Made by a program: the position numbers and the translations under genes. Shown here piece by piece: positions 6,084 to 48,290 of a stretch of 61,620 nt of DNA (position 1 is its first letter; each line of letters starts with the position of its first letter). The DNA is from Kiritimatiellia bacterium. Lineage in GTDB: Bacteria; Verrucomicrobiota; Kiritimatiellia; SLOV01. Below the pieces are notes generated by a model. It made no database searches. It had not been told where the DNA came from and was given only the letters and a program-made list of their open reading frames with translations. The stretch lies in assembly GCA_963578625.1 (NCBI GenBank), contig CAUZEO010000003.1:1-61620 (forward strand), in the 5' to 3' direction.

Positions 6084-6084
6084 C

Positions 6085-19521: not shown

Positions 19522-19581
19522 GTCTGCATCCTTGCAGTTACTTTAGCATCCTGCAACCATTTGAGGAAGCAAGAAAGGATA

Positions 19582-20010: not shown

Positions 20011-20078
20011 GGATTGAAAAACGTTTTCATCATCCTTCAGGGAATTGATCCGCATGCGTCATATCGAAGAGGGCAATC

Positions 20079-21353: not shown

Positions 21354-21592
21354 AACGCTCTTTCGCGGGAAGCAGGGATGAGCCGGAAGTGATAGCACTT
21401 GGTGAAGGGGCTTCTCCGCCAAAACCTTACTTGCCCCGCAACAGCCCCTCCCGGAAGGGAAGATACGGAATGGATTCCATCCCCTGCATGGATGAAAATC
21501 GTCGCTTGCAATGCAATCAGCCAGGCTCCATAATCTGTTTACGTGCTGACAGACCCCCCAATTGCTCCAAGCGTTTGGCAAAGAACTGCGTC

Positions 21593-24082
21593 ATGACCAC
21601 GAATCAACACCCCAACCTGATCTTCGGGGCCGAGGATGTCGCCCGCATCAAGAAGAACATCGAGACTTACGACTGGGCGCGGACGCTTTTTGAGGAGGTC
21701 AAGGGCGCCGTTGATGGAGGGGCGGATTTCGGAACCCAGCACCCCGACTCTCCCCGGTACACCATGACCTATCCGGACTTCGACATCACGGTGGAGGACC
21801 CGGATCTCATGTGGACCGCCCAGCATGTACATATGCGGCGGTTCATGGAGTTTGCGATGGTCGCGGTGCTCACCGGCGAGGAGAAGTACAGCCACCGGAT
21901 GGTCCGGCTGTTGCCCGACATTGCCGAAGTACTGGCGCGCGGAAGCGATCCCAACAAGCAGGCACAGGTGGTCAACTGGACGACCGGTCAGGATGCGGCT
22001 GACGCGCTCATCGCGTACGATCTCCTGTACAACGATCCCTCCTGGACGGAGGCAGCCCGCGAAAAAGTGGAGGGACACTTCCAGTCCATCGGCAAGCAAA
22101 TCGAGGCAGAGCCGTCCTCATACCATCTCTGCAACACCAGCTTCTACTACCAGGTGTACCGGGTGCTCGCGGGATGCTTTTTCGACAATCGGGAGTGGAT
22201 CGACACCGGGCTGGATAACCCGGGCGGATTCAAGAGCCTCCTGACGACACCGTCGCGGCGGGGCGGAACATTCGACATGCGCTGGTACCTCTTCGGAGAC
22301 AGCGACTCCCCGCATCGCCGCCTCCAGCGGTTTCGCGGCGGAACAGTGGACGACGGGATCTGGAACGAGACCGGCAGCTACGGTCTGGATGCGGTGCTGA
22401 GCCAGATGTGCTTTATCGCCGAGGCCATGCTTCACTACGACGGCACCAACCTCTACGAATACGAGGCGCCGGGCGGCGGATGCCTGCGGAATGTTTTCCG
22501 CCGCGGGATGGAGCGGTCATTCAGCGACGGCCAGCCCATCCGGTTCGGCGCCAACGGCGAGGTCATGCAACGCTACGTGCCGGATGTGCCCGGCTCCGAC
22601 GGCACGGCGCTTCGGGTTCCCCTGCCCGGCGACAAGTGGGACCTCGCCTATCTGCGCTGCGGCGATCCCGAGTTCGCATGGGCGGCCTTGCAGGTTCCGG
22701 GGCGGCGCGGCTGCGCCAACAAATGGGGGTACTGCGCGTTGTGGCACGGCCTCGACGCCTCCGAAATGGAGGTACGGACTCCCGATATGCGAAGCATTAC
22801 CTTTCCGGGTTTCGGTGTCGCGGTGGTTCGCAGCACGGAAGGCCCCGAATTCTGGAACTCCGACACCCCCACCGTGGCCGTCCGATGGGGCGAGGCCATC
22901 TACCGCGCGCACCCCGATCAGTTCGGTTTTCAACTCCACGCCTTCGGCCGGGGCATCGAACCGGACATCAACTATCCCTGGGACTACGGGGTCCCCCAGG
23001 GCGGACGCAACCCGACGCCGTTCGGGTACTCCACCTACGCCCACAACTGCCTGGTAGTGGACCGGCGCAACTACAGCCAGGAGGCGGCAAATCTCGTGGT
23101 CGATGACCACGGGGAGCACGCCAAGGTGATCGGCCTGGCAAGCAGCAACGTGACGCAGAGCGATGCGGTGCAGAGCGTCGACCTCGCCCGGTGGCTGGTT
23201 CTGTGCAAGGAGTACCTGCTCGACGTCAGCTACATCGGCGATCTGCATCTCGAGCACACGTTCGACCTGTCCGTCCCCACCTTCGGCACCGACATCGAAA
23301 TCGACGGGGCACAGTGGGAAGACTACGACGTGGGCGCGGACATCGGCTACGGGAAGATCGACACCATCCACGATCTCGATGAAGACCTGGAAGCGGCGGT
23401 GATGCGGACATCACACCCCCCGCCGGCAATCGACAGCGATGAGAACGTGTGGCTCAAGGACGGCCGGCGCTGCAAGCTACGGGAACCGTTCACCGTGCGC
23501 TGCAAACACCCGGACGGCATCCACCTCGCCCTCCACTATGGAGGCTGGAGCGAATGCGAGATGATGACCGCGAAAGCGCCGCTGCGATGGCTTGCGCGGG
23601 AAGGCGTCGACAGCATTCCCGGCCGGTTCGGCCTGGTCATCAATCGAAAAGTGATTTCGCCGGACATCAGCGGCACCGGCACGATGGACTGCAGCATTTT
23701 CACCCACAGCGAGGACCACTGCCACTACTTCGTGGTTCACGAACCGTACCGGGAGCAGAACGGCACGAAGATCCGGGGCGTCCGCCGGCTGCCCCTGAAG
23801 GAGCGGACGGTGGAGATGTGGGACCCCAACGGGTATCCCATGGCAAAAGGCAACCACCGGTGGACCACGCCGCGCGTCGTGGAGGTCCAGGGCGAAGACT
23901 TCATCGACTACTTCATCTACATCGATCACTTCATCGCCCTGCGCGGCGGCGAACCCGGCCGCGTCATCCTCACCACCCCCGCCTTCCGCGTCGAGTTCAG
24001 CGGGCCGTATGTGTGGTTGCGATTGGTCGATGGCAAAATCTCAGCCACCCAAGGCAAGATCACCGAAGTGGATGTGATCTGA
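21593..24082 (+). CDS. Heparinase II/III-like polysaccharide lyase family protein
   Basis: ATG at 21593, codon 69 of the track ORF, 829 aa. N-terminal HPNLIFGAEDVARIKKNIETYDW, then HPDQFGFQLHAFGRGIEPD and STYAHNCLVVDRRN, resemble the heparinase II/III His/Asn blocks. No signal peptide is possible in the open frame. Confidence 0.7.
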   Translation: MTTNQHPNLIFGAEDVARIKKNIETYDWARTLFEEVKGAVDGGADFGTQHPDSPRYTMTYPDFDITVEDPDLMWTAQHVHMRRFMEFAMVAVLTGEEKYSHRMVRLLPDIAEVLARGSDPNKQAQVVNWTTGQDAADALIAYDLLYNDPSWTEAAREKVEGHFQSIGKQIEAEPSSYHLCNTSFYYQVYRVLAGCFFDNREWIDTGLDNPGGFKSLLTTPSRRGGTFDMRWYLFGDSDSPHRRLQRFRGGTVDDGIWNETGSYGLDAVLSQMCFIAEAMLHYDGTNLYEYEAPGGGCLRNVFRRGMERSFSDGQPIRFGANGEVMQRYVPDVPGSDGTALRVPLPGDKWDLAYLRCGDPEFAWAALQVPGRRGCANKWGYCALWHGLDASEMEVRTPDMRSITFPGFGVAVVRSTEGPEFWNSDTPTVAVRWGEAIYRAHPDQFGFQLHAFGRGIEPDINYPWDYGVPQGGRNPTPFGYSTYAHNCLVVDRRNYSQEAANLVVDDHGEHAKVIGLASSNVTQSDAVQSVDLARWLVLCKEYLLDVSYIGDLHLEHTFDLSVPTFGTDIEIDGAQWEDYDVGADIGYGKIDTIHDLDEDLEAAVMRTSHPPPAIDSDENVWLKDGRRCKLREPFTVRCKHPDGIHLALHYGGWSECEMMTAKAPLRWLAREGVDSIPGRFGLVINRKVISPDISGTGTMDCSIFTHSEDHCHYFVVHEPYREQNGTKIRGVRRLPLKERTVEMWDPNGYPMAKGNHRWTTPRVVEVQGEDFIDYFIYIDHFIALRGGEPGRVILTTPAFRVEFSGPYVWLRLVDGKISATQGKITEVDVI
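21668..21740. repeat. 73-nt exact direct repeat, copy 2
   Basis: Identical to 19663..19735. It lies in the 5' part of the lyase-like gene. Confidence 0.95.
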
Positions 24083-24110
24083 GAGAATCATGCATCTATC
24101 CTGGACTCAT

Positions 24111-34257: not shown

Positions 34258-37200
34258 ATGGATTCACGTATCGTTCAAAGTAAGCTGGAGTTGCTCCACG
34301 GCGTGGTCGCCACACCCATCGCCGCCATCGAGGCATGGGAAGCACGTACGGCCGATCACGTCGGTCCCGGCGAGTATCAGGAGCTTGGCGATTGGGCGGC
34401 GCTGCCGCTGCCGGCGGACTGGCCCGGGCTGACCACCGTTTTCCTGCGCGCGCGTTTTGAGCCGCGTCCGGTTCCAGCAGGAGCCACGCTGTGTCTCGAG
34501 ATCGATCATCACGACCTGGAAGCACTGCTGTCCGTGGAGGGTCGCCCCTATGCCGGGATTGACGACCATCACCGGCGCGTGCCGGCCCCGTCAACCCCGG
34601 CGATTCTGGAGATCGAGGCCGTCGCGGCACCGTCCGTGCGTTGGGAGCCCCGGGATGCGGGCAACCGTGGCAGCTTTCGCGGGGCCCGACTCGTCGCCCT
34701 CGACGAGGCCGCGGAACGGGCCTGGCTCGAACTCGACTATGCGCGCCAGACCCTCGACGTCCTTCCGCCGGGCCGGCGCCGGTCCCGATTGGAACGGGCC
34801 CTCGAAGACGCCCTGCTGAAGACCGACACGACACGCGAACAGGAAGAGCAACGCCGGCAGTTGCACGCGGCGGCCGGCGCCCTGCGCAAGCAGATCGCGG
34901 CCATCGGCCGCGATGATGAAGGCGGCGCGCTGTACATGGTCGGCCACACGCACATCGATACCGCCTGGCTCTGGCCCGTGCGCGAGACCATCCGCAAATG
35001 CGCTCGCACGTTCGCCACCGCCTGCCGCCTGATGGAGCGATTTCCACAGTTTCATTTTTCCTGCTCACAGGCGCAGCTCTACGCCTACACGAAGGCGCAT
35101 TACCCGGCCCTCTACGACGAAATGCGCCGTTGGATCGAAGCGGGGCGATGGCACACCACCGGGGCCATGTGGATCGAGGCCGACTGCAATGTCACCTCCG
35201 GCGAGTCGTTGGTTCGACAACTGCTCCACGGCATCCGTTTCTTCCAGGAGGAGTTCGGCACGCGGCCACGCTGCTGCTGGCTTCCCGATGTCTTCGGCTA
35301 CCCGGCGTCTCTGCCGCAAATACTCTCGGGAGCCGGCGTGCCCTACTTCTTCACGTACAAGCTGCATTGGCAGTCTCGCAACCCGTTTCCAGCTCATCTG
35401 TTCCAGTGGGAAGGCATCGACGGCTCACGCGTGTTGGGACACATTCCGCTGCTCGTACATGGTTACAACGGCACGCCCACCCCGCGGCAACTGCAATTCG
35501 CCTGGGACGAGTTTCGGCAGAAGGACAGTTACCCCGAGCTCATGTTTCCCTATGGCTACGGCGATGGCGGCGGCGGGCCGACGGCGGAGATGGTGCAGCA
35601 ACTGGAGATCGCCACGGATTACCCGGGTCTGCCACGGTGCCGCACCGGCGGCGAGGAGACGTTTTTTGAGGAAGCCGCGGCCAGCGGCGCTGTCACCCGC
35701 GTGTGGCGGGGCGAGCTGTACCTCGAGACCCATCGCGGCACCTACACGACGCACGGCGACACCAAGCTCGGCAATCGCCTCTGCGAGATCGATCTGCGTG
35801 ATGCCGAGCTGCTCGGCTGTGCTGCGGCGTGGGCGGCCGCACCGGTGGATCTGGAGCCGCTGCGCGACGCCTGGAAGCTGACCCTGCTGAACCAGTTCCA
35901 CGACATCCTGCCCGGCACCTCGGTCAAAGATGTATATGTCGACACCCGCGCGGAGCATGCCCGGGCGCGGGCCGCCGCCGCCGGGGTCACGACCAGCGCC
36001 ATCGACGCGCTGACCGACCCCGCAGATGATGCAGAGATCACGGTCGTCAACACGCTCGGCTGGGATCGGTGCGATCCCGTCGAACTGTCGGCGCCGGCCG
36101 GACCGGCGACCGTCATGGACGCCGCAGGCAACTCGTGTCCGACACAGGCGGTGACGGCGGCCGACGGCCGGACCGCACTTCTTTTCGCGCCCGGTCCGGT
36201 AGCCGGCTTCTCGGCCGCGGGTTTCCGTGTCTCGACCGGAGCCGCCGAGGCAGCGTCGCCCTTCCGGATCGAAGCTCGACGCATCGAAACCCCGTTCTTC
36301 CGGGCCGAACTGGCGGACGACGGTACCATCACCCGTCTCATGGACAAGTCGTGCGACCGGGAGATCGCGGTGCCGGGGACGTCACTTAATGAGCTGCAGT
36401 TCTTTCAGGATGGCCCCGAGCGCGAGGCCGCCTGGAACGTGCATGCGACCTATGAGCGCTGCCGGTACGACGCCGACCCCGACGTCGGGATCGAAGTCGT
36501 CGAGACCGGGCCGGTGCGGGCCGTCATTCGAATCGATCGTCGTTTCCGCGATTCGACGTTCGTGCAACGTATCGTACTCTACAGCAACCTTCGCCGGATC
36601 GACTTCGAGACCGAGGCGATGTGGCGCGAGCGGCACGTGATGCTGAAGGCAGCCTTCCCCGTGGCCGTTCGGTCGCCGCGGGCCACGTTTGAGATTCAGT
36701 TCGGGGCGGTCGAGCGCCCGACCCATCGCAATACGTCCTGGGACGAAGAAAAATTCGAAGTGTGCGGCCGGCGCTGGGCAGACCTCTCCGAGCCGGGCTA
36801 CGGCGTCAGCCTGCTCAACGACTGCAAGTACGGCCACGACGTCCATGACAATTGTTTGCGCCTGACCTTGTTGCGCGGCAGCGACTGGCCGGACCCGGAG
36901 GCCGATCTCGGTGAGCACCGCTTCACGTACTCGCTGCTGCCGCATGACGGCGACTGGACAAGCGGCGGGACCGTGCGCCGCGCCGCCGAGCTCAATACGC
37001 CGTGGCGTCTGGCCGCCGGCCGGAAGCCCCGCGCCACGACACCGTGGCTATCGTTGTCCGGCATCGAGGTCGTCGCGGATACCTTGAAGCCCGCCGAGGA
37101 CGGGCGTGGCGAAATCCTCCGCGTCTACGAACCGCACGGCGGCCGTGGCCGGGTCGAGATCACGCCGGCCTGTGACCTGCGGCACGTAATCGAGACCAAC

Positions 37201-37305
37201 CTGGTCGAAGAGGACCTGGCCGCGGTCGCGGTCGCGGCCGACGGGAAATTCGCATTCGAGTTGCAGCCGTTCCAGGTTCGCACGTTCCGGCTGCAACGCA
37301 GCTGA
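34258..37305 (+). CDS. GH38 alpha-mannosidase
   Basis: GHTHIDTAWLWPVRETIRKCARTF, WIEADCNVTSGESLVRQLLHG and CWLPDVFGYPASLPQIL are GH38 signature blocks. 1015 aa, no signal peptide. Confidence 0.9.
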   Translation: MDSRIVQSKLELLHGVVATPIAAIEAWEARTADHVGPGEYQELGDWAALPLPADWPGLTTVFLRARFEPRPVPAGATLCLEIDHHDLEALLSVEGRPYAGIDDHHRRVPAPSTPAILEIEAVAAPSVRWEPRDAGNRGSFRGARLVALDEAAERAWLELDYARQTLDVLPPGRRRSRLERALEDALLKTDTTREQEEQRRQLHAAAGALRKQIAAIGRDDEGGALYMVGHTHIDTAWLWPVRETIRKCARTFATACRLMERFPQFHFSCSQAQLYAYTKAHYPALYDEMRRWIEAGRWHTTGAMWIEADCNVTSGESLVRQLLHGIRFFQEEFGTRPRCCWLPDVFGYPASLPQILSGAGVPYFFTYKLHWQSRNPFPAHLFQWEGIDGSRVLGHIPLLVHGYNGTPTPRQLQFAWDEFRQKDSYPELMFPYGYGDGGGGPTAEMVQQLEIATDYPGLPRCRTGGEETFFEEAAASGAVTRVWRGELYLETHRGTYTTHGDTKLGNRLCEIDLRDAELLGCAAAWAAAPVDLEPLRDAWKLTLLNQFHDILPGTSVKDVYVDTRAEHARARAAAAGVTTSAIDALTDPADDAEITVVNTLGWDRCDPVELSAPAGPATVMDAAGNSCPTQAVTAADGRTALLFAPGPVAGFSAAGFRVSTGAAEAASPFRIEARRIETPFFRAELADDGTITRLMDKSCDREIAVPGTSLNELQFFQDGPEREAAWNVHATYERCRYDADPDVGIEVVETGPVRAVIRIDRRFRDSTFVQRIVLYSNLRRIDFETEAMWRERHVMLKAAFPVAVRSPRATFEIQFGAVERPTHRNTSWDEEKFEVCGRRWADLSEPGYGVSLLNDCKYGHDVHDNCLRLTLLRGSDWPDPEADLGEHRFTYSLLPHDGDWTSGGTVRRAAELNTPWRLAAGRKPRATTPWLSLSGIEVVADTLKPAEDGRGEILRVYEPHGGRGRVEITPACDLRHVIETNLVEEDLAAVAVAADGKFAFELQPFQVRTFRLQRS

Positions 37306-37873
37306 GTCGTGAGAACCCGCTACCATCCGCCCAATGGGTTGACCCGTTCCCGTCCCTCGCGGTGTCGAGGAGCCGGGGGGGCATCGTAGAAGCCCCACCG
37401 GACCGAGGGACATGTGGTTCCCGCCCGAACATCCATCCGGCGGGGGAGCACTGCGCGCCGCCCTCGGCGGACCAGGTGTCGGCCAGGACGTAAATCGTGC
37501 TCCAAAATCTCTTGTGCCCCTCTGGAGCCGCGAACCCCGGATTGCGGAGCCCGATCGAGAAGCGTACACTGGGTCAACTGATGAAATTCCCCCATCCCGA
37601 CCGGAAAGCCTTTACTTTCATCAGGCGACTCGCCGTCGTCTCCACCATCTCCATCCCGGCGTCACCGGCCCGTGATGAGCACATGAAGGCAACGGCCGAG
37701 CGCGTGCAGGAGATCTCGGAGCGCTTCACTGCCCTGAAACAACGTCTCTACCTCGGCCAGGCCGGAGGGCTGGTGGAGAACGCGCTGGCCGACGTGCGCG
37801 AGGCGACCGGGTTGACCGTACCCGAACCACTGTTTTCCCAAGCGCCGTGGCTAAATTCGAGGAGGTGAGGTCT

Positions 37874-40654
37874 ATGCGGAAAAGGCCGATCAGCGCCTCG
37901 CCGATTGGAAAGACGGCCTTGATCACCGTTCTGCTCGCCGCTTTGCTATCGTCGTCCGCCTCCGGCGTTGCCGCCGAGCAGAAGGTCCGGCTCCGTGTCC
38001 CCGGACTGCCGCGGCGAGGGGACACGAGTCTGGTGGCCCTGGTCCGACTGGCCCAGTACGAAACCTTTCTGCGCCGCAATCCGGACATCGAGGTGGTGTC
38101 TCCCACCAAGCTTCATATGCCGGGGAAGCTGCACGAGGGGCTGGAGCTGATGTCCATTGCCGGCGACTCGGCCCCGGACGTCCTCAATCTCTACGTCCGC
38201 AAGGTCCAGAACTTCATCGACCAGGGATTCATTTATGACCTCGAGCCCCTGATCGAGCAGGAACTGAAGGCTGATCCCGATTTCGTGGCCCGTCTGGGAA
38301 CGCCGGAATTCCTCTGGCCCGTGGTGACGAAAGACGGCCGGCGGTATGCCCTGATCAAAGACTATTACCTCCGCAACATGATCTACCGGAAGGACCTGAT
38401 GAGGGAGGCGGGGATCGACCCGCCCCGCGCGCCAAAGGATTGGGATGAGCTCTACGACTTCGCCCGGCGAATGACCCGGCCGGACCGGGAGATTCCCCAG
38501 GCCGAGAAGGTGGACGGGCAGTGGGGGCTGCGCCTGATGTGGGGCAGTTTCGCCGGTTGGCTCTTTACCGATTTTGTCTGGCAAGCGGGCGGCGACATGA
38601 TCCGTCAGTTCAAGACGTGCCCCCGGTGCGGTGCCGAGCACGAAGCGGTCAAGGAGAAGGAACTGCTTCGTTGCGGGGACTGCGGAGGGGAACTCGCCTC
38701 GATGGCCCCGGAATGGCGATTGACGTACGGGGACGAAGCGGGAGCCGAGGCCCTGCGCTTCTACAAGAAGCTGCGCTGGTCGAAGTGGGCCCGCTGTCCT
38801 CACGACGACGAGCCCGTCGACGTCCCCACCGTGGTCTGCCCCACCTGCCGCGAGCCCAACCCGGTCCTGCCCGATCCCGGCGCCGGCAAAAAGCCCGACC
38901 GGATGGCCTGCCGGGTGGACGGGACCTCCCTGGAAGTCCCGGCAGCGAAGAAACGCTTCGTCTGCCCGCTCGACGGGACGTTTCTGGACGGGGAAAAGAT
39001 CCATACCGGCGTGGTGGAGATGCAGGAACAGGGGTTGACGGATTTCGAAGCGGGCAGCGTGGGCATGGCGGGTCACACCAGCATTCACGACGCAGTACGG
39101 CACTTAGAGACGGTAGGCCTGCGGGGCGCGGACATCGGGTTTGCCCCCTGGCCGGCCGGGCCGGGGGGCCGGGCCAGTTTCGTGGGCGGCAACGCACTGG
39201 GCATCAACCGAAACGTAAAGGACCCCCGCGTGATGGACGCGGCCTGGCGTCTGATCAAGTTCATGTGCAGCGAAAATGCCCGTCGCATCGAGACGCGGGT
39301 GAAAGTGGAAAACGGGTTCGCCCTCTACAGCGATCCGCGCGACCTGAAGCGATTCGGCTACGACGAGTATTACGAGCAGTTCTCGCCCGAGCTGGTCCGG
39401 GTCTACGATGAGATCGACCGGATCGGGCGGGTGGAACCTTTCGTGGCCAACTACCAGATCGTCCAGGCCGTCCAGCTCACCGAACCGGTGGATACGATCC
39501 TGAAGCTGGCCGACGGCTACCGTTACGACCCGGCCGTCCTGATGCGGGAGAACGAGCGGAAGAGCAACACGGCGGTCATGAAGGTGCGGGAGGAGTCCCT
39601 CCACGGGAAAAGGCAGCGGGTCGCTTGGTTCTTCTTCGTCCTTGCCGTTCCGCTGGGGGCCCTGCTCATCCGGGCCGTGCTGCGCGGCCATGCCGAAAAG
39701 CTGGCCAAGGAAGAAGTCGTGCCGCCCGCGCGCCGGCGACTTCGCGTTCGGCTGCGGATCTGGTGTTTCCTGGGGCCGGCGGTGGTCCTGGTGCTGGTGT
39801 GGCAATACCTCCCGCTGTTCCGGGGATCGGTGATGGCCTTCTTCGATTACCGGATCATGGCCCAGAGTCTCTACCTGGGTCTCGACAACTTCATCGAGGC
39901 CGCGACGTCGGGTCTCTTCTGGCGGGTGATGGGGAACACCGTGATCTACGTGGCCATGACCCTCGGGTTCGGGTTTCTCGTCCCGATCATCCTCGCCGTC
40001 ATGCTCAGCGAGACCCCGGTGGGAAAGATGTTCTTCCGCACCGTCTTCTATCTCCCCACCGTCATCTCCGGCATCGTGATCATGCTGCTGTGGAAAGTGA
40101 TCTACCAGGCCAGCGACGACGGCCTGCTGAATCGCCTCCTGGCGGCGCTCAACGAGATCACCATGCGGGTGGGCTGGCAGATCTACGATCGGCCCATCGA
40201 CTGGCTCGGCGAAAACGCCTTCCTCGCCATGGCCTGCGTGGTGATTCCAGGCGTCTGGTCGGGAGCGGGAGCGGGCAGCATTCTCTACCTGGCCGCCCTG
40301 AAGACGGTGCCGGAGGATCTCTACGAATCGGTGGCCCTGGACGGCGGCGGGGTGGTGCAACGCATCCGCCACATCATGATCCCGTTTCTCCTACCCCTGA
40401 TTGTGATCAACTTCATCGGCGCCCTCATCGGGAGCTTTCACGCCATGGCCAACATCTTCGTCATGACCGGCGGCGGTCCCGTGAACGGGACGCGGGTGAT
40501 CGGGCTGGAGATCTGGGCCAACGCCTTCGTCTTCCTGAAGATAGGATACGCCACCGCCCAGGCGTGGATCCTGGGGGCCATGTTAATCGGGTTGACCCTG
40601 ATGCAAATGCAGATCCTGAAGCGGGTCGAGTTCAGGGCGGGGGAGGCCAATTAA
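37874..40654 (+). CDS. Fusion protein 2: solute-binding domain with Cys-knuckle inserts + MalF/UgpA-type ABC permease
   Basis: ATG at 37874 is preceded by GGAGGTGAGG. Signal/anchor KTALITVLLAALLSSSASGVAA, then SBP blocks (DSAPDVLNLYV, MIYRKDLMREAGIDPPRAPKDWDELYDF, FVWQAGGD). A TM helix (VAWFFFVLAVPLGALLI) and a basic loop follow. The permease part has the EAA loop EDLYESVALDGGGVVQRIRHIMIPFLLP. The architecture matches 12358..15039. Confidence 0.85.
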   Translation: MRKRPISASPIGKTALITVLLAALLSSSASGVAAEQKVRLRVPGLPRRGDTSLVALVRLAQYETFLRRNPDIEVVSPTKLHMPGKLHEGLELMSIAGDSAPDVLNLYVRKVQNFIDQGFIYDLEPLIEQELKADPDFVARLGTPEFLWPVVTKDGRRYALIKDYYLRNMIYRKDLMREAGIDPPRAPKDWDELYDFARRMTRPDREIPQAEKVDGQWGLRLMWGSFAGWLFTDFVWQAGGDMIRQFKTCPRCGAEHEAVKEKELLRCGDCGGELASMAPEWRLTYGDEAGAEALRFYKKLRWSKWARCPHDDEPVDVPTVVCPTCREPNPVLPDPGAGKKPDRMACRVDGTSLEVPAAKKRFVCPLDGTFLDGEKIHTGVVEMQEQGLTDFEAGSVGMAGHTSIHDAVRHLETVGLRGADIGFAPWPAGPGGRASFVGGNALGINRNVKDPRVMDAAWRLIKFMCSENARRIETRVKVENGFALYSDPRDLKRFGYDEYYEQFSPELVRVYDEIDRIGRVEPFVANYQIVQAVQLTEPVDTILKLADGYRYDPAVLMRENERKSNTAVMKVREESLHGKRQRVAWFFFVLAVPLGALLIRAVLRGHAEKLAKEEVVPPARRRLRVRLRIWCFLGPAVVLVLVWQYLPLFRGSVMAFFDYRIMAQSLYLGLDNFIEAATSGLFWRVMGNTVIYVAMTLGFGFLVPIILAVMLSETPVGKMFFRTVFYLPTVISGIVIMLLWKVIYQASDDGLLNRLLAALNEITMRVGWQIYDRPIDWLGENAFLAMACVVIPGVWSGAGAGSILYLAALKTVPEDLYESVALDGGGVVQRIRHIMIPFLLPLIVINFIGALIGSFHAMANIFVMTGGGPVNGTRVIGLEIWANAFVFLKIGYATAQAWILGAMLIGLTLMQMQILKRVEFRAGEAN
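38618..38965 (+). other. Cys-knuckle insert region of fusion protein 2
   Basis: CPRCGAEHEAVKEKELLRCGDC lies at 38618..38683. A second Cys cluster follows: RCPHDDEPVDVPTVVCPTC...MACRVDG...FVCPLDG. Confidence 0.55.
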
Positions 40655-42565
40655 ATGCCCCTGATCCTTCCGGCTGAGCGACGTTCGTTGCGTGCGATCC
40701 TGTTTCACGGCCTGATCGTGGTGCTGCTGGCCCTGGGCTCGGTGACCATGCTCTACCCGTTTGCCATTACGGTGGCGACCTCGTTCACGAGCAACGTCGA
40801 CTACCGCGATTGGCGGTTGATCCCCCGGTATTTTCACGACGACGTGGCCCTGTACCGCAAGTACCTGGAGGCACGGTACGGAAAGGACCGGCCTTTCTTT
40901 CTCGAATTCCAGAGCAAGCACAGGCTCGAGGAGATTTCACAGTACACACAGATCGAAGCGATCCCCGAGGTCGATCTCGACGATCCCCACCTGCAGTGCC
41001 GGGTCGAGGACTGGGACCGGTTTCGGAGGGAATTGCCCGAGCGGTTTATGCGCACCTATTTCTTTGACGCCAACTACCTGGAGGGACGGTCGCAGAAGGT
41101 GTTCCAGCGGTATCTGCGGAACCGGTTCGACCATGATCTCGCGGCCTTCAATGCCCATCTGGGTCTCGGAATTCCCTTCAAATCGTTCCACGAAGTCAAC
41201 GTGCCGGACGTCAACCTGGAGGGACACGGGTTGCGCATTCGCCGGGACCCGCTGCGGGATCTCTTCCTGTCCTACCGGGAGGAGATGCCCCTGGATCTGA
41301 TCAATCCCCTCAACTTCGACCAAATCTACCAGGCCCGAATCCGCGGCCGGTACGCCGACATCGGCGCGGTCAACCGGGCTTGGGGGCGGGCCTTTCCCGG
41401 TTTTCTGTCGATCCGGTTTCCGACCGTTCGACCGGAGGGGGAGGAGGGTGCGTTCTGGGCCGAATTCATGCGCAAGCGCTTTCCCATCCGCTTCGTGAAG
41501 GTAAGGAGCAATCACGCCGAGGCCTACCGGGGCTTTCTGGCCGAGCGCTACCAGGGGGAGGCTCGATACAATCGGGTGGTGGACAAGTTCAACGCGGAAT
41601 CGGGTCTGGCTATCCCCGCCCTGGCGGACACGGTCTTTCCCTCCATGCCTCCGGAGACCGATTTCGAGTTTCAGAACTGGAAGCGTTTCATCGACGAGAA
41701 GGTTCCGTTGGAGCAGCTCATCATCGAGACGACGCACACCCGCTATCACGATTGGCTTGGAAGAAACTACGGGACCGTCGAGGCGCTGAACGGAACGTAT
41801 GGAGCCGGCTACGCCGCAGTCGAGGAGGCGGAGCTCCCGTGGGTCCTCGCGGACGCAGCCTGGTTCAAGGCCAACCGCAACCAGATCAAGCGCGAGTTCA
41901 TCACGGCGAACTATCGCATGGTCTGGAGCTTCATGTCGCAGCGGGGAAGAGCCTTCTGGAACACGATCGTGCTCGTGGTGCTGTCGGTGATCGGGGCTCT
42001 TACCATCCAGCCCATGGCGGCCTTTGCCCTGAGCCGCTATCGCTTCTCCTACAAGCACAAGGTGCTCATCTTCCTCATCGCCACCATGTCGTTCCCGGCC
42101 GAAGTGACCATGATCCCGAATTTCCTGCTGTTGCGGGAGTTCCACCTGTTGAACACCTACGCGGCGCTGATCCTGCCGGGGCTGGTGAGCGGGATCAGCA
42201 TCTTCTACCTGAAGGGGTTTTTCGATTCGCTTCCGCGTGAGCTCTACGAGGCGGGGATGATCGACGGGGCCTCGGAGCCGCGGATGTTCTGGGAGATCAC
42301 CATGCCGCTCTCCAAGCCGATTCTGGCCGTCATCGGGCTCAACGCCTTTACCGCGGCCTACGGCGGCTTCATGTGGGCGCTGCTGATCTGCCAGGAAGAG
42401 AAGATGTGGACCCTGATGGTCTTCCTCTACCAGTTTTCTTCGCAGAACAAACCCCCGCCGGCCCAGATGGCCGCTTTTGTCCTGGCGGGGATACCGACGC
42501 TGCTGGTCTTCATCTTCGCCCAGAAGACCATCATGCGCGGGATCATCGTGCCGACAATGAAGTAA
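40655..42565 (+). CDS. MalG/UgpE-type ABC permease 2 with large TM1-TM2 insertion
   Basis: The ATG directly follows the TAA of the upstream gene. TM1 is ILFHGLIVVLLALGSVTMLYPFAI. About 385 non-hydrophobic residues follow. The last 203 aa are a permease core colinear with 15054..17099 (FWNTIVLVVLSVIGAL..., RELYEAGMIDGASEPRMFWEITMPLSKP). Confidence 0.85.
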   Translation: MPLILPAERRSLRAILFHGLIVVLLALGSVTMLYPFAITVATSFTSNVDYRDWRLIPRYFHDDVALYRKYLEARYGKDRPFFLEFQSKHRLEEISQYTQIEAIPEVDLDDPHLQCRVEDWDRFRRELPERFMRTYFFDANYLEGRSQKVFQRYLRNRFDHDLAAFNAHLGLGIPFKSFHEVNVPDVNLEGHGLRIRRDPLRDLFLSYREEMPLDLINPLNFDQIYQARIRGRYADIGAVNRAWGRAFPGFLSIRFPTVRPEGEEGAFWAEFMRKRFPIRFVKVRSNHAEAYRGFLAERYQGEARYNRVVDKFNAESGLAIPALADTVFPSMPPETDFEFQNWKRFIDEKVPLEQLIIETTHTRYHDWLGRNYGTVEALNGTYGAGYAAVEEAELPWVLADAAWFKANRNQIKREFITANYRMVWSFMSQRGRAFWNTIVLVVLSVIGALTIQPMAAFALSRYRFSYKHKVLIFLIATMSFPAEVTMIPNFLLLREFHLLNTYAALILPGLVSGISIFYLKGFFDSLPRELYEAGMIDGASEPRMFWEITMPLSKPILAVIGLNAFTAAYGGFMWALLICQEEKMWTLMVFLYQFSSQNKPPPAQMAAFVLAGIPTLLVFIFAQKTIMRGIIVPTMK

Positions 42566-42626
42566 CGCGTCCCTTGCTCACCTCTTCGCCTCCAGGCTCT
42601 CAATCGTTCCCTGCCGCGCCACGATC

Positions 42627-43220
42627 TCACCGTTCACCCAGCGTAGCCAGGCTGAAATCGACGTTGAAAAACGGCGTTTCCATCTTCACCCGGCCCGGTT
42701 CCCCTCCGCGCAGTCGGGCCAGATGATCAACACATACGAAGTAGTCCGAAAAGCCCTCGCTCCTGACTTCAATCACCCGTGGCATCGCCCATCCGTGCAG
42801 TTCTTTGCCGATCTCGTAGCCATTCGGGTCCCTCAGCGTGCACTGCCGCTCCTCGAGACGCAATCGCCGTACGCTCCGGATTCTGTATCCGTCTTCCGCC
42901 CTGTAGGGTTCGTGCGCGACGACGAAGTGGCAGTTCTCTTCGCTGTGCGGGTAGGTGCCGCCGAGCCATCGGCCGGTGCCGGGCATGTTCGATTCGTAGA
43001 CCTTGCGGTTGATGACGATCCCGTAGCGTCCCTCGATGCTTTGGACGCCCTCCCGCGCCCGCCAGCTGCGCGGCGCCTTCCCGGTGAGGATCTCGCTCTC
43101 GTCTTCGGCGCCGTAATGGAGGGCAAGGTGAATGCCGCCCTCATGCTTGCAGAGAACCGTATCTGACGCGCCCGGTGCTTGCGTACAGACGCGTATCGTG
43201 TCTGCTGAAGGTACCGGCAC
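42627..43220 (-). pseudogene. Stand-alone C-terminal fragment of a heparinase II/III-like gene
   Basis: 197-aa ORF colinear with roughly the last 190 aa of 21593..24082: CKHEGGIHLALHYG, GRYGIVINRKV, HFVVAHEPYR, RSVRRLRLEER, DYFVCVDHLARLRGGEPGRV. It lacks all catalytic N-terminal and central parts and the last ~25 aa. Confidence 0.55.
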
Positions 43221-43289
43221 CTCTGCTGGCGGATCAACGATTCAGATAGAGTTTCTTATTGCGATTCAGATTTCGAAGAGGAAGGGTGT

Positions 43290-44504
43290 GTGGTTGTGAG
43301 CTTTAAATCTGCATTTGTGATATGCGCGTACGTGGGCGCATCCGCAGCCCAGGCCCAAGAACCACCCCCGAACCTCCTCCCCAATCCCGGCTTCGAAGAG
43401 ACGCCCGACGCGCTGCTCGGCGAAGGACGAACGATAGGGGAAGGGAAGGACACGTTTTCCTGCCCCGGCTGGTGGGGGGGGCGGAGCAAGGGGACGGTGC
43501 GGGTGTCGGGCGATACACGCGACAAGGCCGGCGGGAAGACCAGTCTTCGGTTCGATTTCCTCGATCCCGATACCGACAACGAGGTCTTCGTTCAAGGCCG
43601 GGTCCACGGGGTCAAGCCACGCACCATCTATCGCCTCGGGGGCAAATTCAAAGTGCTCAACGTCAACTGGGTCTTCTCGTTCAGCCACACGTATGAGTAT
43701 GTGGGAGACGAACGCGTCGGCGGCACCGGGAGGCGGACGATTAATTACCCGACCTCAAGCGGATTCGAAGACCGCGAGGTCTGGATCATCACCGGGCCGA
43801 AGGTTTCCTGGATCGAAGTACGAATCCAGTGGCGGGGCCGGCCGACCATCGAGGGGATCGTCCGGCAGCCGTCGATTGTCTGGATGGACGACCTGGTGCT
43901 GGAGGAAATCGGCCCGGTGTTTCCGCCAGAAGGCGACTACCTGGCCGAGGATTTCGAGGGCAAGGAGCTGGACGGGTGGGTGCTCACCGAGATCGGGGCG
44001 CATTGGGAACCGACCGATCCCGGGTACGGGGACGCACGCAGCCCGCAGATCTCCGATGAGCAGGCCCACAGCGGGAAGCAGAGCCTCAAGATGGTCCCCA
44101 CCTGGGGCGTAGTCACCCGGCCCTTCGACCGGGAGGTCAGCAATTGCATCGTGACGGGGTGGTTCTACGAGGTACCCAGTACCCCCAACGACAAGTGCCG
44201 CGGCATCGTGCTGCTCGCTGACGACGGCAAGCGGGTGGGGTTGGGCACGCACCGCGAATCGCTGTCGAACTACATCTGCTACCTCGATACCGGAGTGAAG
44301 GTGACCGATGTGCCCAAAAGCCAGGCGTGGCACGAGTTCAAGTTCGATGTCACCGAGGGGGAGGGAGTGGTCTGCTTCATCGACGGAGTCGAAGTGGGAC
44401 GGACCGACAAGATCGACCGCTTCAGCAGCGTGCAGATCGGCGAACACGCCTGGCGCGGCAGCACCGCGTTCGTGGACGATCTCTCCATCGTGATGAAACC
44501 GTAG
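43290..44504 (+). CDS. Secreted CBM4_9-like + LamG-like protein, family member 3
   Basis: GTG start with GAGGAAGGG upstream. Signal peptide SFKSAFVICAYVGASAAQA. PPNLLPNPGFEE is a CBM-type opening. The C-terminus is VCFIDGVEVGRTDKIDRFSSVQIGEHAWRGSTAFVDDLSI. Confidence 0.75.
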   Translation: MVVSFKSAFVICAYVGASAAQAQEPPPNLLPNPGFEETPDALLGEGRTIGEGKDTFSCPGWWGGRSKGTVRVSGDTRDKAGGKTSLRFDFLDPDTDNEVFVQGRVHGVKPRTIYRLGGKFKVLNVNWVFSFSHTYEYVGDERVGGTGRRTINYPTSSGFEDREVWIITGPKVSWIEVRIQWRGRPTIEGIVRQPSIVWMDDLVLEEIGPVFPPEGDYLAEDFEGKELDGWVLTEIGAHWEPTDPGYGDARSPQISDEQAHSGKQSLKMVPTWGVVTRPFDREVSNCIVTGWFYEVPSTPNDKCRGIVLLADDGKRVGLGTHRESLSNYICYLDTGVKVTDVPKSQAWHEFKFDVTEGEGVVCFIDGVEVGRTDKIDRFSSVQIGEHAWRGSTAFVDDLSIVMKP

Positions 44505-44517
44505 CCCAAAGCGCACC

Positions 44518-47500
44518 ATGGAGATCGAGAATATGAAAGCCCACGCGACACTGGTTATTTTCGCTTTCGTCCTTCTTTTCGGCGACGCCTTCGCCTCCGA
44601 CCTGACCGTGGGCAAGAAAGCAATGTTCAGCGAGGATTTTGAGCTGGACGTGTACGAGTGGCGGATGGAGGAGGAGGGGGCAACCGAAGAGGAACTCCCG
44701 CAACTGATCCGAACCGACCTCGCCGATGAGGGCCACAACGCGCTGGCCCTGCGCGGGAAGCGGGGGATCCTGGCGCTGGACCTGGTCACGGAAATCAAGG
44801 GGATCGTCGAGTTCCGCGTCCGGTTCGATCCGCCCTTCGACTACACCCGCATGTTTGCCGTGGGGCTCGACGACGAGGAGGTGCTGCTGGGCCTGAACGG
44901 GTCCGGGACCTTCACTCTTGTCGCGAAGGACGGCTGGAAGCTGACACCAATGGAGGCCGGCGGCGGGTGGCACACCTTTACCTACGATCTGAGTGGGGTT
45001 TTTGCGCGCATCTACATCGACGGGCGGAAGGTGGCCGAGCTGGAGCACCTGCGCGAACTGAACCGGGTGCGTCTCGGGATCAACCATGGCAAAGGGGGGA
45101 ATTGCCTGGTCGACGCCTTTGTGATCTATAGCGCCGAGGCGGGGATCGCCGAGGACGAGGCCGTGGAGGTCGAGATTCCCCTGCTGGGCTGGGACGACGG
45201 GTTCAAGTCGTGCCGCGCGGCCTCGGAGACGCCGGAACCCGGCCGGCTCGGCATGACGGACGCAGTGGCCCGGACCGGGCGGCACTCCCTGGAGGTGGAG
45301 TTCGGACCGTATCCCTCCGGCGGCGGGCGGGGTTTCAATTTCCATCGCCGGATGCCGCTCCCCGGGGTGCCGCAGAAGATCGGACTCTGGGTACGCGGCG
45401 ACGGGTCCGGGAGCGAGATCGGCCTGGGATTCGACACCCCGAACAGCCACTTGAAATACCGGATCCCGAAGGTGACCTGGACCGGGTGGAAGAAGGTCGA
45501 GATCGACCTGACCCGGGAATGCGACCAGCTCTATGGCCGGGAGTGGGCGCTGAAGGAGGCGGCGCACGAAGGCGCATCGATCGTCCAGTTCGTCATCCCC
45601 AATCAACCTGCCGGAGCGAAGGGACATGTCTATCTCGACGACCTGACGGTGACCACGCGGCTGAGCCGCCATGCGCCGTACGTGCTCTACGCCGAGAACA
45701 CGGCGGAGGACAACATCGTGGAACTGGGCGACCCGGCGGAGTTCATCCTGCGCGTGGGGAATTACGGTGAGCAGGACGCTATGTTCACCATCGACTACCA
45801 GTTGCGGGACTACGAGGGACGCACCGTGCATAACGCCTCGACGTCGATCGAGGTGCCGGCGGGGCAGAACGCGCATGCCCGGCTCCAGGTCGACGACCTG
45901 TTCAACGGCTGGTACCAGGCGCTTTTTATCCTGACGCGCGACGGGCGTACCCTGATGACGGAGGAGGAGTCGATCGCGGTGTTGGCGCCGCTGGACCCGG
46001 CGGTTTTTTCCGACGCCAATCCGTTGGGGAATTACTCCGGGCCCAGTCGGGTGCTTCCGCGCATCGGGATGGCCGAATGCTACGTGAACAATCCGCCCTC
46101 GCCGAAAGAGTTGGCCTTTCTGGAAGAACACAATTTCACCGGGATTGTTTTCTACCAGGCTCCGAAGTGGGCCTATCTCCCGGACGAGGAGATGCACGTC
46201 GCGGCCGAAGCCTGGGCCGAAGAGATCGCGGAGACCTCGGCCTCGCTGAAGGGCAAGCCGATCTACTACAAGGTCCTGACCGAACCGAACAACAGCGGCA
46301 TCTCCCCACCGCGGTGCTACGAGGTAATCAAGTACGCCCACCGGGGACTGACGAAGGGCGACCCGGAGGCGAAGATCATCGGCCTCAACACCTCCAAGTT
46401 CGACTGGGGCCGGCAGAAGGTGGTGTGGGGCCTGGGCGGGGTCCGGTATATTCACGCCGCCGGCGTGCATCCCTACGTGGGCGCCCACATGGGGGGCATC
46501 CGGCCCGAGCGGGTTCACGGCATCGGCAACCTGATGAGCATGCTCCGGCTCGACGACATGTTGCGCCGCCACAACCAAGGCCGGCCGAAGAAGATCTGGG
46601 CCAGCGAGTTCGGGATGACCTCGTCGCTCACGGATCCGAACGAAGGCAGCTACGAACGGCAGGCCGACCTCACCGCCCGGACCGTCATCGTGTTCAAGAC
46701 CATGGAGAACTTCGGCAAGATTCACTACCACCTCCCGCGCGACTCCTCGGTGTGGGGGAAGTTCGGGCTTTTCACGGTGACCGGCGAACCCAAGCCGGCG
46801 GCGGCGGCGTTTCACACCTTGGCGAGGCGGTTGACCGGGGTGAAGTGGCTGAAGACGATCGAAGCAGAGAACAACGTCCGCGCGTACCTGTTCGAGACGC
46901 CGGAGGCGGGCCGGCAGATGATTGCGGCGTGGGCGATCGAGGGAGGGGAGGCTTTATCCTTGCCGGTTGCCTGTGAGGCGGTCGAGGTGATGAATCTGAT
47001 GGGAGGGGTTCGCATGGAGACATGCGCGGATGGACGGTTGAAGCTGGGTCTGACCGAGTCGCCGGTCTTCGTGTCATCTGTCGGAGGGACCCGCCTGGTC
47101 GATCAATGGGTCCAGGTGGAGCGGCGGTATCGCGAGCTGCGCACCGGATCGGTACAGACTCCCTACGTAGTTCGAGTCGCGAACCTGGGGTCGGAGTTAC
47201 TGGCGGGCACACTGACATGCGATCCGCCGGACGGAATCACGGCCGCGGAAGCGAAACAGGGGTTCGAGGTGCCGCCCGGCGAAACAAGAAATTTCACGGT
47301 CGCGATCGATGTCGCCGCTGATTGTGAACCCGGATTGCGCGATCTGGTCTTTGCCTTGGAGTCCCACCCGCTCTATTCAAGCCGGAGCATGATCAGCGTC
47401 GTGCGGCCGGAGACCGCGCTGGCCCCGGCCCGCGTTGCCGAAGCGCCGGTGATCGATGGAAAACTCGACGAGGAAGCCTGGCAGGATACGAAGGCTTTCA

Positions 47501-48042
47501 CCCCGTTTCTCGACGACACCACCGGTTTCGTCCCGCTTGTGAACCAGGAAGTCCGCCTGGTCTACGATGCGAAGGGGCTGTACGTCGGCATGACGTGCCG
47601 GACGCGGGCGGGAGAGGCGTTGCGTGCCGATCACCAGGAGCGTGACGACCCGCTTCTATGGCAGGACGAGTGCGTCGAGCTCTTCCTTGACCCCGACCTT
47701 GACCGGAACAACTACTACCAGTTCATCGTCAACGTCGAGGGCGTTGAGGGAGACCGAAAATACGTTGACACGAAGACGCAGAAGCCGGACTGGGAGGGAG
47801 CCGGGGATTGGGACGGATCCATGACGTCCGCCACCTCGCGCACGGAAGACAGGTGGGCCGTGGAAATCCACATCCCGTGGGAGGACGTCGAGGTCGAGCC
47901 GGGCCGCGTGCATCGGATGGGCATCAATCTCTGCCGCAAGTACGCCCCGGTGGGCGATGCCACCATCCGCTCCTACACCCCGAGCGGCATCCAGGTCCAC
48001 GGGGTGGAATCCTACCCGGTGGTCGAGGTTGACCTGCGATGA
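44518..48042 (+). CDS. Secreted LamG-like + clan GH-A-like TIM-barrel + CBM9-like protein
   Basis: 1174 aa. Signal peptide ATLVIFAFVLLFGDAFA. VLTEPNNSG is an NEP-type acid/base motif. IWASEFGM, about 100 aa later, is nucleophile-type. The C-terminal ECVELFLDPDLDRNNYYQFIVN is a CBM9-type block. Confidence 0.8.
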   Translation: MEIENMKAHATLVIFAFVLLFGDAFASDLTVGKKAMFSEDFELDVYEWRMEEEGATEEELPQLIRTDLADEGHNALALRGKRGILALDLVTEIKGIVEFRVRFDPPFDYTRMFAVGLDDEEVLLGLNGSGTFTLVAKDGWKLTPMEAGGGWHTFTYDLSGVFARIYIDGRKVAELEHLRELNRVRLGINHGKGGNCLVDAFVIYSAEAGIAEDEAVEVEIPLLGWDDGFKSCRAASETPEPGRLGMTDAVARTGRHSLEVEFGPYPSGGGRGFNFHRRMPLPGVPQKIGLWVRGDGSGSEIGLGFDTPNSHLKYRIPKVTWTGWKKVEIDLTRECDQLYGREWALKEAAHEGASIVQFVIPNQPAGAKGHVYLDDLTVTTRLSRHAPYVLYAENTAEDNIVELGDPAEFILRVGNYGEQDAMFTIDYQLRDYEGRTVHNASTSIEVPAGQNAHARLQVDDLFNGWYQALFILTRDGRTLMTEEESIAVLAPLDPAVFSDANPLGNYSGPSRVLPRIGMAECYVNNPPSPKELAFLEEHNFTGIVFYQAPKWAYLPDEEMHVAAEAWAEEIAETSASLKGKPIYYKVLTEPNNSGISPPRCYEVIKYAHRGLTKGDPEAKIIGLNTSKFDWGRQKVVWGLGGVRYIHAAGVHPYVGAHMGGIRPERVHGIGNLMSMLRLDDMLRRHNQGRPKKIWASEFGMTSSLTDPNEGSYERQADLTARTVIVFKTMENFGKIHYHLPRDSSVWGKFGLFTVTGEPKPAAAAFHTLARRLTGVKWLKTIEAENNVRAYLFETPEAGRQMIAAWAIEGGEALSLPVACEAVEVMNLMGGVRMETCADGRLKLGLTESPVFVSSVGGTRLVDQWVQVERRYRELRTGSVQTPYVVRVANLGSELLAGTLTCDPPDGITAAEAKQGFEVPPGETRNFTVAIDVAADCEPGLRDLVFALESHPLYSSRSMISVVRPETALAPARVAEAPVIDGKLDEEAWQDTKAFTPFLDDTTGFVPLVNQEVRLVYDAKGLYVGMTCRTRAGEALRADHQERDDPLLWQDECVELFLDPDLDRNNYYQFIVNVEGVEGDRKYVDTKTQKPDWEGAGDWDGSMTSATSRTEDRWAVEIHIPWEDVEVEPGRVHRMGINLCRKYAPVGDATIRSYTPSGIQVHGVESYPVVEVDLR

Positions 48043-48290
48043 GCGCGGGTCGTTCAAGTTGCCACGCGATGAATCCGATCCTATGCTTTCACGAATGACA
48101 GGGTCCAACCACGACTTCTTTCGTCGAAACGGCTAACGGAGCTACGGGCCCCCGCCGCCCATGAAAGGACAAAGAAGTCGTTGGCCGGGCCGATCGACAA
48201 AGCTTACGACAAAGTGAAATCACATATGCGGCGCCCGAGACCTTCTGAACCCTGAACCATTCCTGAGCCGACTGGCAAGCCCCCGAGCCT

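Follow-up and report, generated by a model that had tools for sequence, protein, structure and literature searches.

Two gene pairs in the genome of a Kiritimatiellia bacterium raise the question of whether an ATP-binding cassette (ABC) sugar importer can be built from a permease that carries its own binding domain and a partner permease with a giant outer loop, and of how one locus came to hold two such modules. The DNA analysed (the window) is a stretch of 61,620 nucleotides (nt), positions 1 to 61,620 of contig CAUZEO010000003.1 in GenBank assembly GCA_963578625.1. Each pair consists of a fusion protein (F) and a MalG-like permease (G). We propose, with a probability of roughly 0.78, that each locus encodes the membrane half of an ABC sugar importer of the carbohydrate uptake transporter 1 (CUT1) type, i.e., a maltose-family, type I importer, of non-standard build and with an unlinked ATPase. 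The four genes are as follows.

37874..40654, + strand: F2, fusion of a binding domain and a permease, 926 amino acids (aa), uninterrupted open reading frame (ORF)
40655..42565, + strand: G2, MalG-like permease, 636 aa, uninterrupted ORF
12358..15039, + strand: F1, paralogous fusion, 893 aa, uninterrupted ORF
15054..17099, + strand: G1, paralogous giant-loop MalG-like permease, 681 aa, uninterrupted ORF

F2 starts at the ATG at 37874, with the Shine-Dalgarno sequence GAGGAGG 8 nt before it, and the start codon of G2 directly abuts the F2 stop. The start of G1 was set at the ATG at 15054, which yields the MPI... N-terminus conserved in homologs, while the ORF itself opens at a GTG at 14955. In pairwise alignments F2 and F1 were 29% identical from end to end (about 906-948 columns, E 4e-107), and G2 and G1 were 36% identical across 652 columns (E 3e-108). 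Hence the copies are neither near-identical repeats nor chance matches, and the strong divergence reported in the first-pass annotation of this DNA was confirmed. Instead of near-identical copies or disabling mutations, we found intact ORFs that keep every column invariant in the family (59 of 59 in F1 and F2 from a 17-member F alignment; 28 of 28 in G1 and G2 from a 50-member G alignment). A protein identical to G2 (P0018) is present on a metagenome contig in ENA. A scan of 37200..44600 for promoters and terminators gave nothing above the shuffled expectation.

In both F1 and F2, Pfam identified an N-terminal SBP_bac_1 and a C-terminal BPD_transp_1 domain within one ORF, so the fusion of binding protein and permease described earlier is real in both copies, and a binding domain and a MalF-type core share one polypeptide. 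The layout of F2 and the segments that join the two halves are given below.

F2 protein: signal peptide, aa 1-34; binding domain, about aa 35-575; extra transmembrane helix (TM0), aa 585-603; basic loop, aa 604-628; permease core, aa 629-926
39626..39757, + strand: F2 linker, with TM0 at 39626..39682 and an Arg-rich cytoplasmic loop at 39683..39757
14059..14115, + strand: F1 TM0 (aa 568-586), followed by its basic loop at 14116..14187

The N-termini of the F proteins resemble Sec signal peptides (MRKRP..LITVLLAALLSSSASGVA/AEQ and ..VVATGLLLAVFSAPPAHA/SP), and the lipobox cysteine is absent from both. The extra helix of F2 is WFFFVLAVPLGALLIRAVL, followed by the Arg/Lys-rich loop RGHAEKLAKEEVVPPARRRLRVRLR; that of F1 is WPFFGGLSLFLLALGTFVY, followed by RTIRRARVRLRSVRERKITQGKR. 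Both hydropathy and sequence therefore agree with the earlier claim of an additional helix and a basic loop in each copy. TM0 of F2 has a hydropathy of 2.24, and the AlphaFold2 (AF2) model places helices at aa 574-613 and 623-657. Because the permease core starts inside the cell and carries an outside domain on its N-terminus, TM0 and the basic loop are needed to join the two.

The core of F2 has six helices, is MalF/SugA-like and contains the EAA motif ESVALDGGG...IP. Among PDB sequences it matched AlgM1, SugA and MalF (aa 622-898), while aa 60-245 matched MalE3; the binding-domain matches listed for F2 were T. maritima MalE3 and proteins with generic sugar-binding-protein names. The best NCBIfam matches of F were UgpA/MalF/GlcT. 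In the AF2 model of F2, with a mean predicted local distance difference test score (pLDDT) of 69.6, most of the binding domain scored 80-93. This domain superposed on complete oligosaccharide-binding proteins with target-normalised TM-scores of 0.69-0.77, a range that includes GacH and UgpB, with T. maritima MalE3, C. thermocellum CbpB and a beta-glycoside-binding protein at 0.73-0.77. A cognate binding protein of the sugar type (SBP_bac_1/8 fold) is present, as a fused rather than a free domain. Neither Pfam nor NCBIfam detected a cytoplasmic signalling domain in F or G.

The binding domains of F1 and F2 also contain cysteine-rich inserts.

38618..38683, + strand: F2 Cys knuckle 1 (CPRC-14-CGDC), an insert in the binding domain, modelled as beta hairpins (pLDDT ~75-78)
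38795..38965, + strand: F2 second Cys-rich insert, a looser Cys/His cluster (C308/H310...C322xxC325, C346, C364), pLDDT 44-52
13105..13170 and 13282..13365, + strand: F1 Cys knuckles

Numbered from the ATG at 37874, the first knuckle of F2 reads C249xxC252-14-C267xxC270, and the two of F1 read C250xxC253-14-C268xxC271 and C309xxC312-20-C333xxC336. The first knuckles of F1 and F2 occupy the same alignment columns with the same spacing, as had been noticed from the letters. They are not a trait of the whole family: the strict CxxC...CxxC pattern was found in 10 of 81 relatives, and these 10 make up the two clades to which the window copies belong. Judged from the sequences, the knuckles appear to be clade-specific structural inserts, which may be either zinc-binding or disulfide-linked.

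The partner protein G has a MalG-like core and a greatly expanded first outer loop (P1), arranged as follows.

G2 protein: first transmembrane helix (TM1), aa 12-42; outer loop (P1), about aa 43-430; MalG core, aa 431-636, with the EAA motif EAGMIDGAS...MP
G1 protein: TM1, aa 23-41; loop, aa 42-477; core, aa 478-681
40952..41830, + strand: four tandem homologous repeats in the G2 loop, at aa 100-175, 188-250, 251-322 and 325-392

The loop measures about 400 residues in G2 and about 436 in G1. The last 232 residues of G2 (404-635) and G1 (449-680) aligned without a gap, which supports the first-pass description of a giant-loop MalG partner with a core of identical length. BPD_transp_1 was found at aa 460-628 of G2. 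G matched MalG, AlgM2 and SugB among PDB sequences, its best NCBIfam matches were UgpE/MalG/GlcU, and the AF2 model of G2 (pLDDT 90.7, predicted TM-score 0.87) matched the MalG, AlgM2 and SugB structures. Profile-profile comparison of the loop segments of G2 with hhalign gave pairwise probabilities of 98.0-99.5% (E 3e-13 to 3e-23), and hence the giant loop consists of four tandem homologous repeats; in the model a helix-strand-helix-helix unit is seen four times. A GH42 beta-galactosidase was considered for the loop and rejected. The profile PF02449 passes its cut-off but covers only 29-39 residues (aa 356-384 in G2; profile positions 146-194 of 376). The matching stretch corresponds to a motif in the last repeat, Yxx[FW]LxxxYGxxxxLNxxWG, and there is no glycosidase domain.

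This architecture is conserved well beyond the window. An exhaustive search of 1.84 billion cluster representatives returned 500 proteins with E<1e-30; of the 150 best-scoring representatives, about 114 are at least 700 aa long and span both halves of the query. A species-level scan (one genome per species) yielded at least 578 related stretches. The best 80 of these are all near-full-length fusions, nearly all from metagenome bins, which are labelled Armatimonadota/Chthonomonadia, Planctomycetota, Hydrogenedentota, Kiritimatiellia, Lentisphaerota/Victivallales, Verrucomicrobiota, Cloacimonadales and a few others, such labels being approximate. The database names of these proteins are generic ("carbohydrate ABC transporter permease", "extracellular solute-binding protein"). 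Gene contexts were counted in 82 loci, referred to below by L numbers. A giant-loop G adjoins F in 47 of them, directly downstream in 45 and upstream in 2, and when contexts were sampled from the G side, a fusion F was directly upstream in 3 of 3. Neighbour-joining trees of F and of G, calculated for 46 loci and the window modules, were congruent (distance correlation r = 0.95 over 1128 pairs), which indicates that the F-G pair evolves as a unit. Several modules per genome are common: L019 and L051 belong to one Armatimonadota metagenome-assembled genome, L030 and L070 to another, and L084 holds two.

An importer of this kind requires an ATPase, and the window encodes none. The LSGGQ signature was absent from all six frames of the 61.6 kb, and tblastn of the window with a MalK-type ATPase query gave no match at E <1. 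The EAA motif, by which the ATPase docks, is present in all four proteins (F1 aa 789, F2, G1 aa 577 and G2 aa 532). Its D-G and closing P (D823, G824, P837) are invariant in 17 F proteins; among 50 G proteins G538 and P555 of the motif are invariant, and E532 and A539 are at least 90% conserved. According to the passages of PMC7658222 drawn on here, CUT1 systems commonly share a 'multitask' ATPase (MsmX, MsiK) encoded elsewhere, and the permease genes served by it likewise have no linked ATPase gene. The missing ATPase, which the first-pass annotation had correctly noticed and had counted among the unusual features, is therefore expected and not strange.

In flanks of 6 kb (10 kb for L001/L002), an ORF with a nucleotide-binding domain (NBD) of importer size (244-368 aa) was found near F in 4 of the 82 loci, namely L029, L040, L075 and L001/L081; the last two labels denote one Armatimonadota contig, counted once. 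The 368-aa NBD of L029 lies directly before F. In L075, a Victivallales ortholog of module 1 (F1/G1), a 365-aa CUT1-type ATPase gene directly follows the module, convergent with G. Its product matched 7x0q (E 1e-126) and MsmX (E 1e-118), and also AlgS, MalK and SugC; it is thus MsmX/MalK-like, as in the CUT1 systems with a multitask ATPase. Since this ortholog adjoins an ATPase of that type, a shared ATPase encoded elsewhere is the likely engine of the window modules. In L013 and L014, ATPase motifs occurred only in an unrelated 984-aa ORF. A 229-aa ABC ATPase at 9308..9997 of L001/L081 precedes a fusion F without G (801 aa) with a 3-nt gap, and is unlike the MalK-type ATPases of about 365-368 aa that adjoin the L075 and L029 modules.

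We propose the following course of events. F would be exported by means of a cleavable signal peptide and would present its oligosaccharide-binding domain, complete with both lobes, on the outside of the membrane. TM0 would return the chain through the membrane, to be followed by the positive cytoplasmic loop and the six-helix MalF/SugA-like core. F and G would then form a heterodimer with exactly one tethered binding domain, and their EAA motifs would dock two copies of an MsmX/MsiK/MalK-type ATPase, encoded outside the window and probably common to several importers. The P1 repeat domain of G may hold or guide the tethered domain, as the P2 loop of MalF does in E. coli, or may pre-bind glycan. 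Because F has no P2-type loop and P1 of G is hugely expanded, docking or guiding of the binding domain is the simplest reading. In E. coli both the P1 loop of MalG and the P2 loop of MalF contact MalE, as stated in the passages of PMC6906923 drawn on here. The two modules most likely differ in oligosaccharide specificity and would serve the GH38, GH36-like, GH95-like and GH43 enzymes and the sulfatases encoded nearby.

Several points weigh against this reading. With no ATPase in 61.6 kb, the energising partner is assumed. The F2 model is of low quality in its membrane part (pLDDT 40-70), the contact between loop and binding domain is presumed, and the probable substrates are read from the gene neighbourhood. 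A fold search with the whole of G2 returned permease cores only among the best 50 matches listed, so the fold of the loop repeats has no identified relative. In about 25 loci, mostly from Kiritimatiellia/Lentisphaeraceae, F has no G within 6 kb, and the second F of L084 pairs with an ordinary G of 284 aa; a giant loop is therefore no strict requirement for a working fusion.

The F proteins without a linked G may use an unlinked partner or may form homodimers. They make up a subclade comprising L022, L023, L028, L031-L033 and about 20 other Kiritimatiellia/Lentisphaeraceae loci. In L023 the neighbours of F are a gene for a 611-aa protein and a GH2 gene. The 611-aa gene, which lies upstream of F, was considered as a divergent G and rejected: its product has just one hydrophobic stretch, at the N-terminus (overlapping hydropathy peaks, two in number, at aa 19-47), lacks Pfam domains and does not resemble G. 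In L084/L085 two fusion modules lie back to back at 3000..11300, one with a giant-loop G of 629 aa and the other with the 284-aa G, and a 153-aa Avd-like ORF (PF22296 bAvd / 23S_rRNA_IVP) is found between F and G of the giant-loop module.

The principle of the fusion is not new, since a MalE-MalF importer has been characterised in Bdellovibrio bacteriovorus, where MalE is fused to MalF in a CUT1 maltose/maltodextrin importer (Licht et al. 2019, via PMC6906923). Compared by description, that importer likewise has one binding domain on the MalF-type subunit, in a 1:1 ratio, and it is powered by a MalK-type ATPase; the passages of PMC6906923 drawn on here mention neither a giant four-repeat MalG loop nor Cys knuckles. 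The solved CUT1 importers, E. coli MalFGK2-MalE, Sphingomonas AlgM1M2SS-AlgQ2 and mycobacterial LpqY-SugABC, share with F/G the homologous cores, the EAA motifs and the fold of the binding domain. Their binding protein is a separate polypeptide, whereas it is fused in F; P1 of MalG is short in the solved structures, whereas that of G has about 400-436 residues and four repeats. The window loci also differ from them in having no ATPase gene. F has a six-helix core plus TM0, whereas E. coli MalF has eight helices with the Ig-like P2 loop.

Tethering of binding domains is found in other importers too. OpuA and GlnPQ, reportedly described by van der Heide and Poolman in 2002, tether one or more binding domains to the permease with an extra anchor helix or signal sequence. 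OpuA (Lactococcus) and GlnPQ are type I importers that follow the same tethering principle as F. They belong to the betaine/OTCN and polar amino acid families and use other classes of binding protein, whereas F carries the sugar class SBP_bac_1. They are homodimers with 2 or 4 binding domains (OpuA uses two substrate-binding domains, according to the part of PMC11065425 drawn on here), whereas an F/G heterodimer would have a single one. No subunit with a large outer domain accompanies them, whereas F pairs with a distinct G. Membership of the OpuA/GlnPQ type was rejected on the basis of the sugar-class binding domain and the distinct G; OpuA appeared only as a weak permease-core match (rank 50) in the G2 fold search.

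A literature search found no paper on the giant MalG loop or on this family in Armatimonadota or in the Planctomycetota-Verrucomicrobiota-Chlamydiota (PVC) group, and the words "fused" and "fusion" are absent from a 2026 review of glycoside transporters; the Bdellovibrio MalE-MalF importer was the sole precedent that came to light. F/G is a widespread and apparently uncharacterised build of the maltose-family importer, and it does not challenge current understanding. We would go further with hesitation, as the odds seem to us somewhat against it: F/G could be an undescribed subclass of the maltose family in the PVC group, Armatimonadota, Hydrogenedentota and Cloacimonadota, in which the four-repeat P1 docks the tethered domain in place of the P2 loop of MalF, or captures glycans, and the zinc-ribbon-like Cys knuckles of two clades add a function. 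Such a build might suit bacteria that feed on large glycans and have an enlarged periplasm.

ABC sugar importers determine which glycans can be consumed, and their mechanism is known from a few model systems with free binding proteins. The F/G family is common in abundant, mostly uncultured glycan degraders of the Planctomycetota, Kiritimatiellia, Lentisphaerota, Verrucomicrobiota and Armatimonadota. With a domain tethered 1:1 and a repeat domain on the partner, F/G offers a natural system for the control of binding-protein docking and stoichiometry, and for oligosaccharide import in bacteria with unusual cell envelopes. Recognition of the pair would also prevent its annotation as separate or chimeric genes and would flag glycan-utilisation loci in these phyla.

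In order to place the two copies in time, their relatives were compared. The two window modules branch within different deep clades in the F tree as well as in the G tree, and hence their split is older than these clades. Orthologs of module 1 were found in L054 and L073 (Planctomycetota) and L075 (Victivallales), with 57-63% identity to F1 and 54-58% to G1 (62% and 54%, respectively, for L075). The nearest relatives of F2/G2 are L003-L008 (Chthonomonadia, HR16, Planctomycetales, Hydrogenedentota, Armatimonadota), with 43-45% identity. The best matches of F1 (63%) and F2 (45%) come from metagenome bins. Each window copy is much closer to relatives in other phyla than to the other window copy. 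The old duplication proposed at first is thus upheld as a very old split, but it is not specific to this lineage. As far as the sequences allow, we regard the two modules as ancient paralogs from different subfamilies of one family.

One or both modules could have arrived by horizontal transfer of the F-G pair and not by vertical inheritance of an ancient duplication, and we consider the chance of this to be somewhat short of even. The clade of module 1 mixes Planctomycetota with Victivallales, that of module 2 mixes Armatimonadota, Planctomycetales and Hydrogenedentota, and F and G move together. However, both modules have a GC content (0.61-0.64) that agrees with that of the window, no mobile-element genes were seen beside either module, and the taxon labels of the bins are approximate.

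The surroundings of the modules bear on another account of their origin, a duplication of a larger block. The genes concerned are listed here.

34258..37305, + strand: GH38 alpha-mannosidase, some 570 nt before F2 (Pfam domains GH38 N, middle, C and C2; E 1e-81)
42627..43220, - strand: 197-aa ORF convergent with G2, 56% identical over 170 aa to g21389 aa 702-871 (E 1e-64)
43290..44504, + strand: g43290, 404 aa, of one family with g20079..21353 and g31023..32366 (- strand)
44518..48042, + strand: g44518, 1174 aa, with Pfam CBM9_1 (E 3e-8), FixG_C and NPCBM_assoc and an Ig-like domain
20079..24082, + strand: counterparts beside module 1, g20079..21353 (424 aa) and g21389..24082 (897 aa, 'hypothetical')

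The first-pass annotation suggested the duplication of a multi-gene block made up of F and G with a heparinase-like and a CBM+LamG gene; in this account the event took place in this lineage and was followed by divergence of the two copies. When 12000..24100 was compared with 37800..48100 in a translated dot-plot, and the proteins with each other by all-against-all blastp, the analysis revealed two shared elements besides F and G, namely the g20079/g43290 family and the 170-residue domain. Some of this suits a block: g20079 and g43290 are homologous (25% identity, E 1e-33) and lie on the same strand downstream of G, each followed by a large protein of secreted type, and the g21389 domain recurs directly after G2. 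More of it does not. F1/G1 and F2/G2 belong to separate deep clades, and the closer relatives of each are found in other phyla. The paralog most similar to g43290 is g31023c (34%), which adjoins no ABC module. The 170-aa domain, at 56% identity, is far younger than the F/G split, and neither its strand nor its place in the gene order is the same on the two sides. No other similarity was seen between g21389 and g44518, and none of these genes is found beside orthologous modules in other genomes. No heparinase was detected near the modules in sequence-based searches of Pfam (E<=5), NCBIfam and PDB sequences. The proposed CBM+LamG gene was half right, as g44518 contains a CBM9 domain, but LamG appeared only faintly and elsewhere, as Laminin_G_3 in g20079 and g31023c (E 0.03 and 0.17). 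The neighbourhood therefore repeats in one gene family and one domain, with order and strand not kept, and the block duplication is largely refuted; we hold it to be improbable.

Less probable still is that the modules are ATPase-less sensors or 'transceptors', which would report the availability of glycans through the tethered binding domain and would not transport. In favour of it, an ATPase gene is missing from the window and from nearly all neighbourhoods of the relatives, and the outer domains are unusually large. Against this, all four proteins, like the family as a whole, keep the EAA docking motifs, MalK-type ATPases adjoin the L075 and L029 modules, F and G have no cytoplasmic signalling domain, and unlinked shared ATPases are normal for CUT1 systems in the passages of PMC7658222 cited above. 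We consider a role as sensors very unlikely and retain the importer.

That the fusion is a frameshift or an assembly join of separate binding-protein and permease genes is next to impossible: no point in its favour was found, whereas two independent copies lie in one window, each has the dedicated TM0 and basic loop that topology demands, and the same intact architecture is conserved across a very old split and in at least 80 genomes from independent assemblies, which argues, as the first-pass annotation had it, for selection on the architecture.

Both modules are surrounded by genes for glycan degradation. Besides GH38, the window encodes GH36-like, GH95-like, GH127-like and GH43 enzymes, and two sulfatases, and it has sugar isomerase and sugar kinase genes. 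GH38 is the better conserved neighbour: two loci from Cloacimonadales (L045, L078) also have a GH38 gene, at most 0.2 kb past the end of G, and this linkage gives a weak hint of mannoside uptake for loci of the module 2 type. Between GH38 and F2, at 37579..37870, a small ORF starting MKFPHPDRKAFTFIRRLAVV... resembles a degraded prepilin N-terminal motif; no family matched it.

On the other side of module 2, the ORF at 42627..43220 may be a fragment of a gene, or it may be the C-terminal domain of g21389 in a separate, stand-alone copy; the + strand ORF at 42723..43166 is probably its shadow. The homologs of g21389 have 801-840 aa, cover 92-93% and are annotated as hypothetical, with no Pfam domain; since they are shorter, the true start of g21389 may lie tens of codons past the GTG at 21389. 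A partial copy of g21389 with 93% identity (P0242) is present on a JGI contig. No Pfam, NCBIfam or PDB sequence match was obtained for g43290. The N-terminal stretch of g44518 is related to the C-terminus of the g43290 family, with blastp links to g20079, g31023c and g43290.

Downstream of module 1, two direct DNA repeats were found, 17780-18020/19769-20009 (76% identity, spacing 1989 nt) and 19605-19761/21610-21766 (79%, 2005 nt). Through these repeats the ORF at 19561..20010 is a mosaic, in which sequence from the 3' end of the DUF1559/prepilin gene (17167..18021) is combined with sequence from the 5' part of g21389, and the arrangement looks like the scar of a local rearrangement. A PhyH-family dioxygenase gene lies at 18032..18901 on the - strand (E 2e-21), and a second PhyH gene at 57921..58688; the + strand ORF at 17750..19138 is probably not a gene, since it overlaps the former. 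The gene at 17167..18021, directly downstream of G1, and that at 8328..9296 encode proteins with a prepilin-type N-terminal methylation motif and DUF1559, and a PEP-CTERM protein is encoded at 7208..8071 (- strand). The DUF1559/prepilin and PEP-CTERM families are typical of the PVC group.

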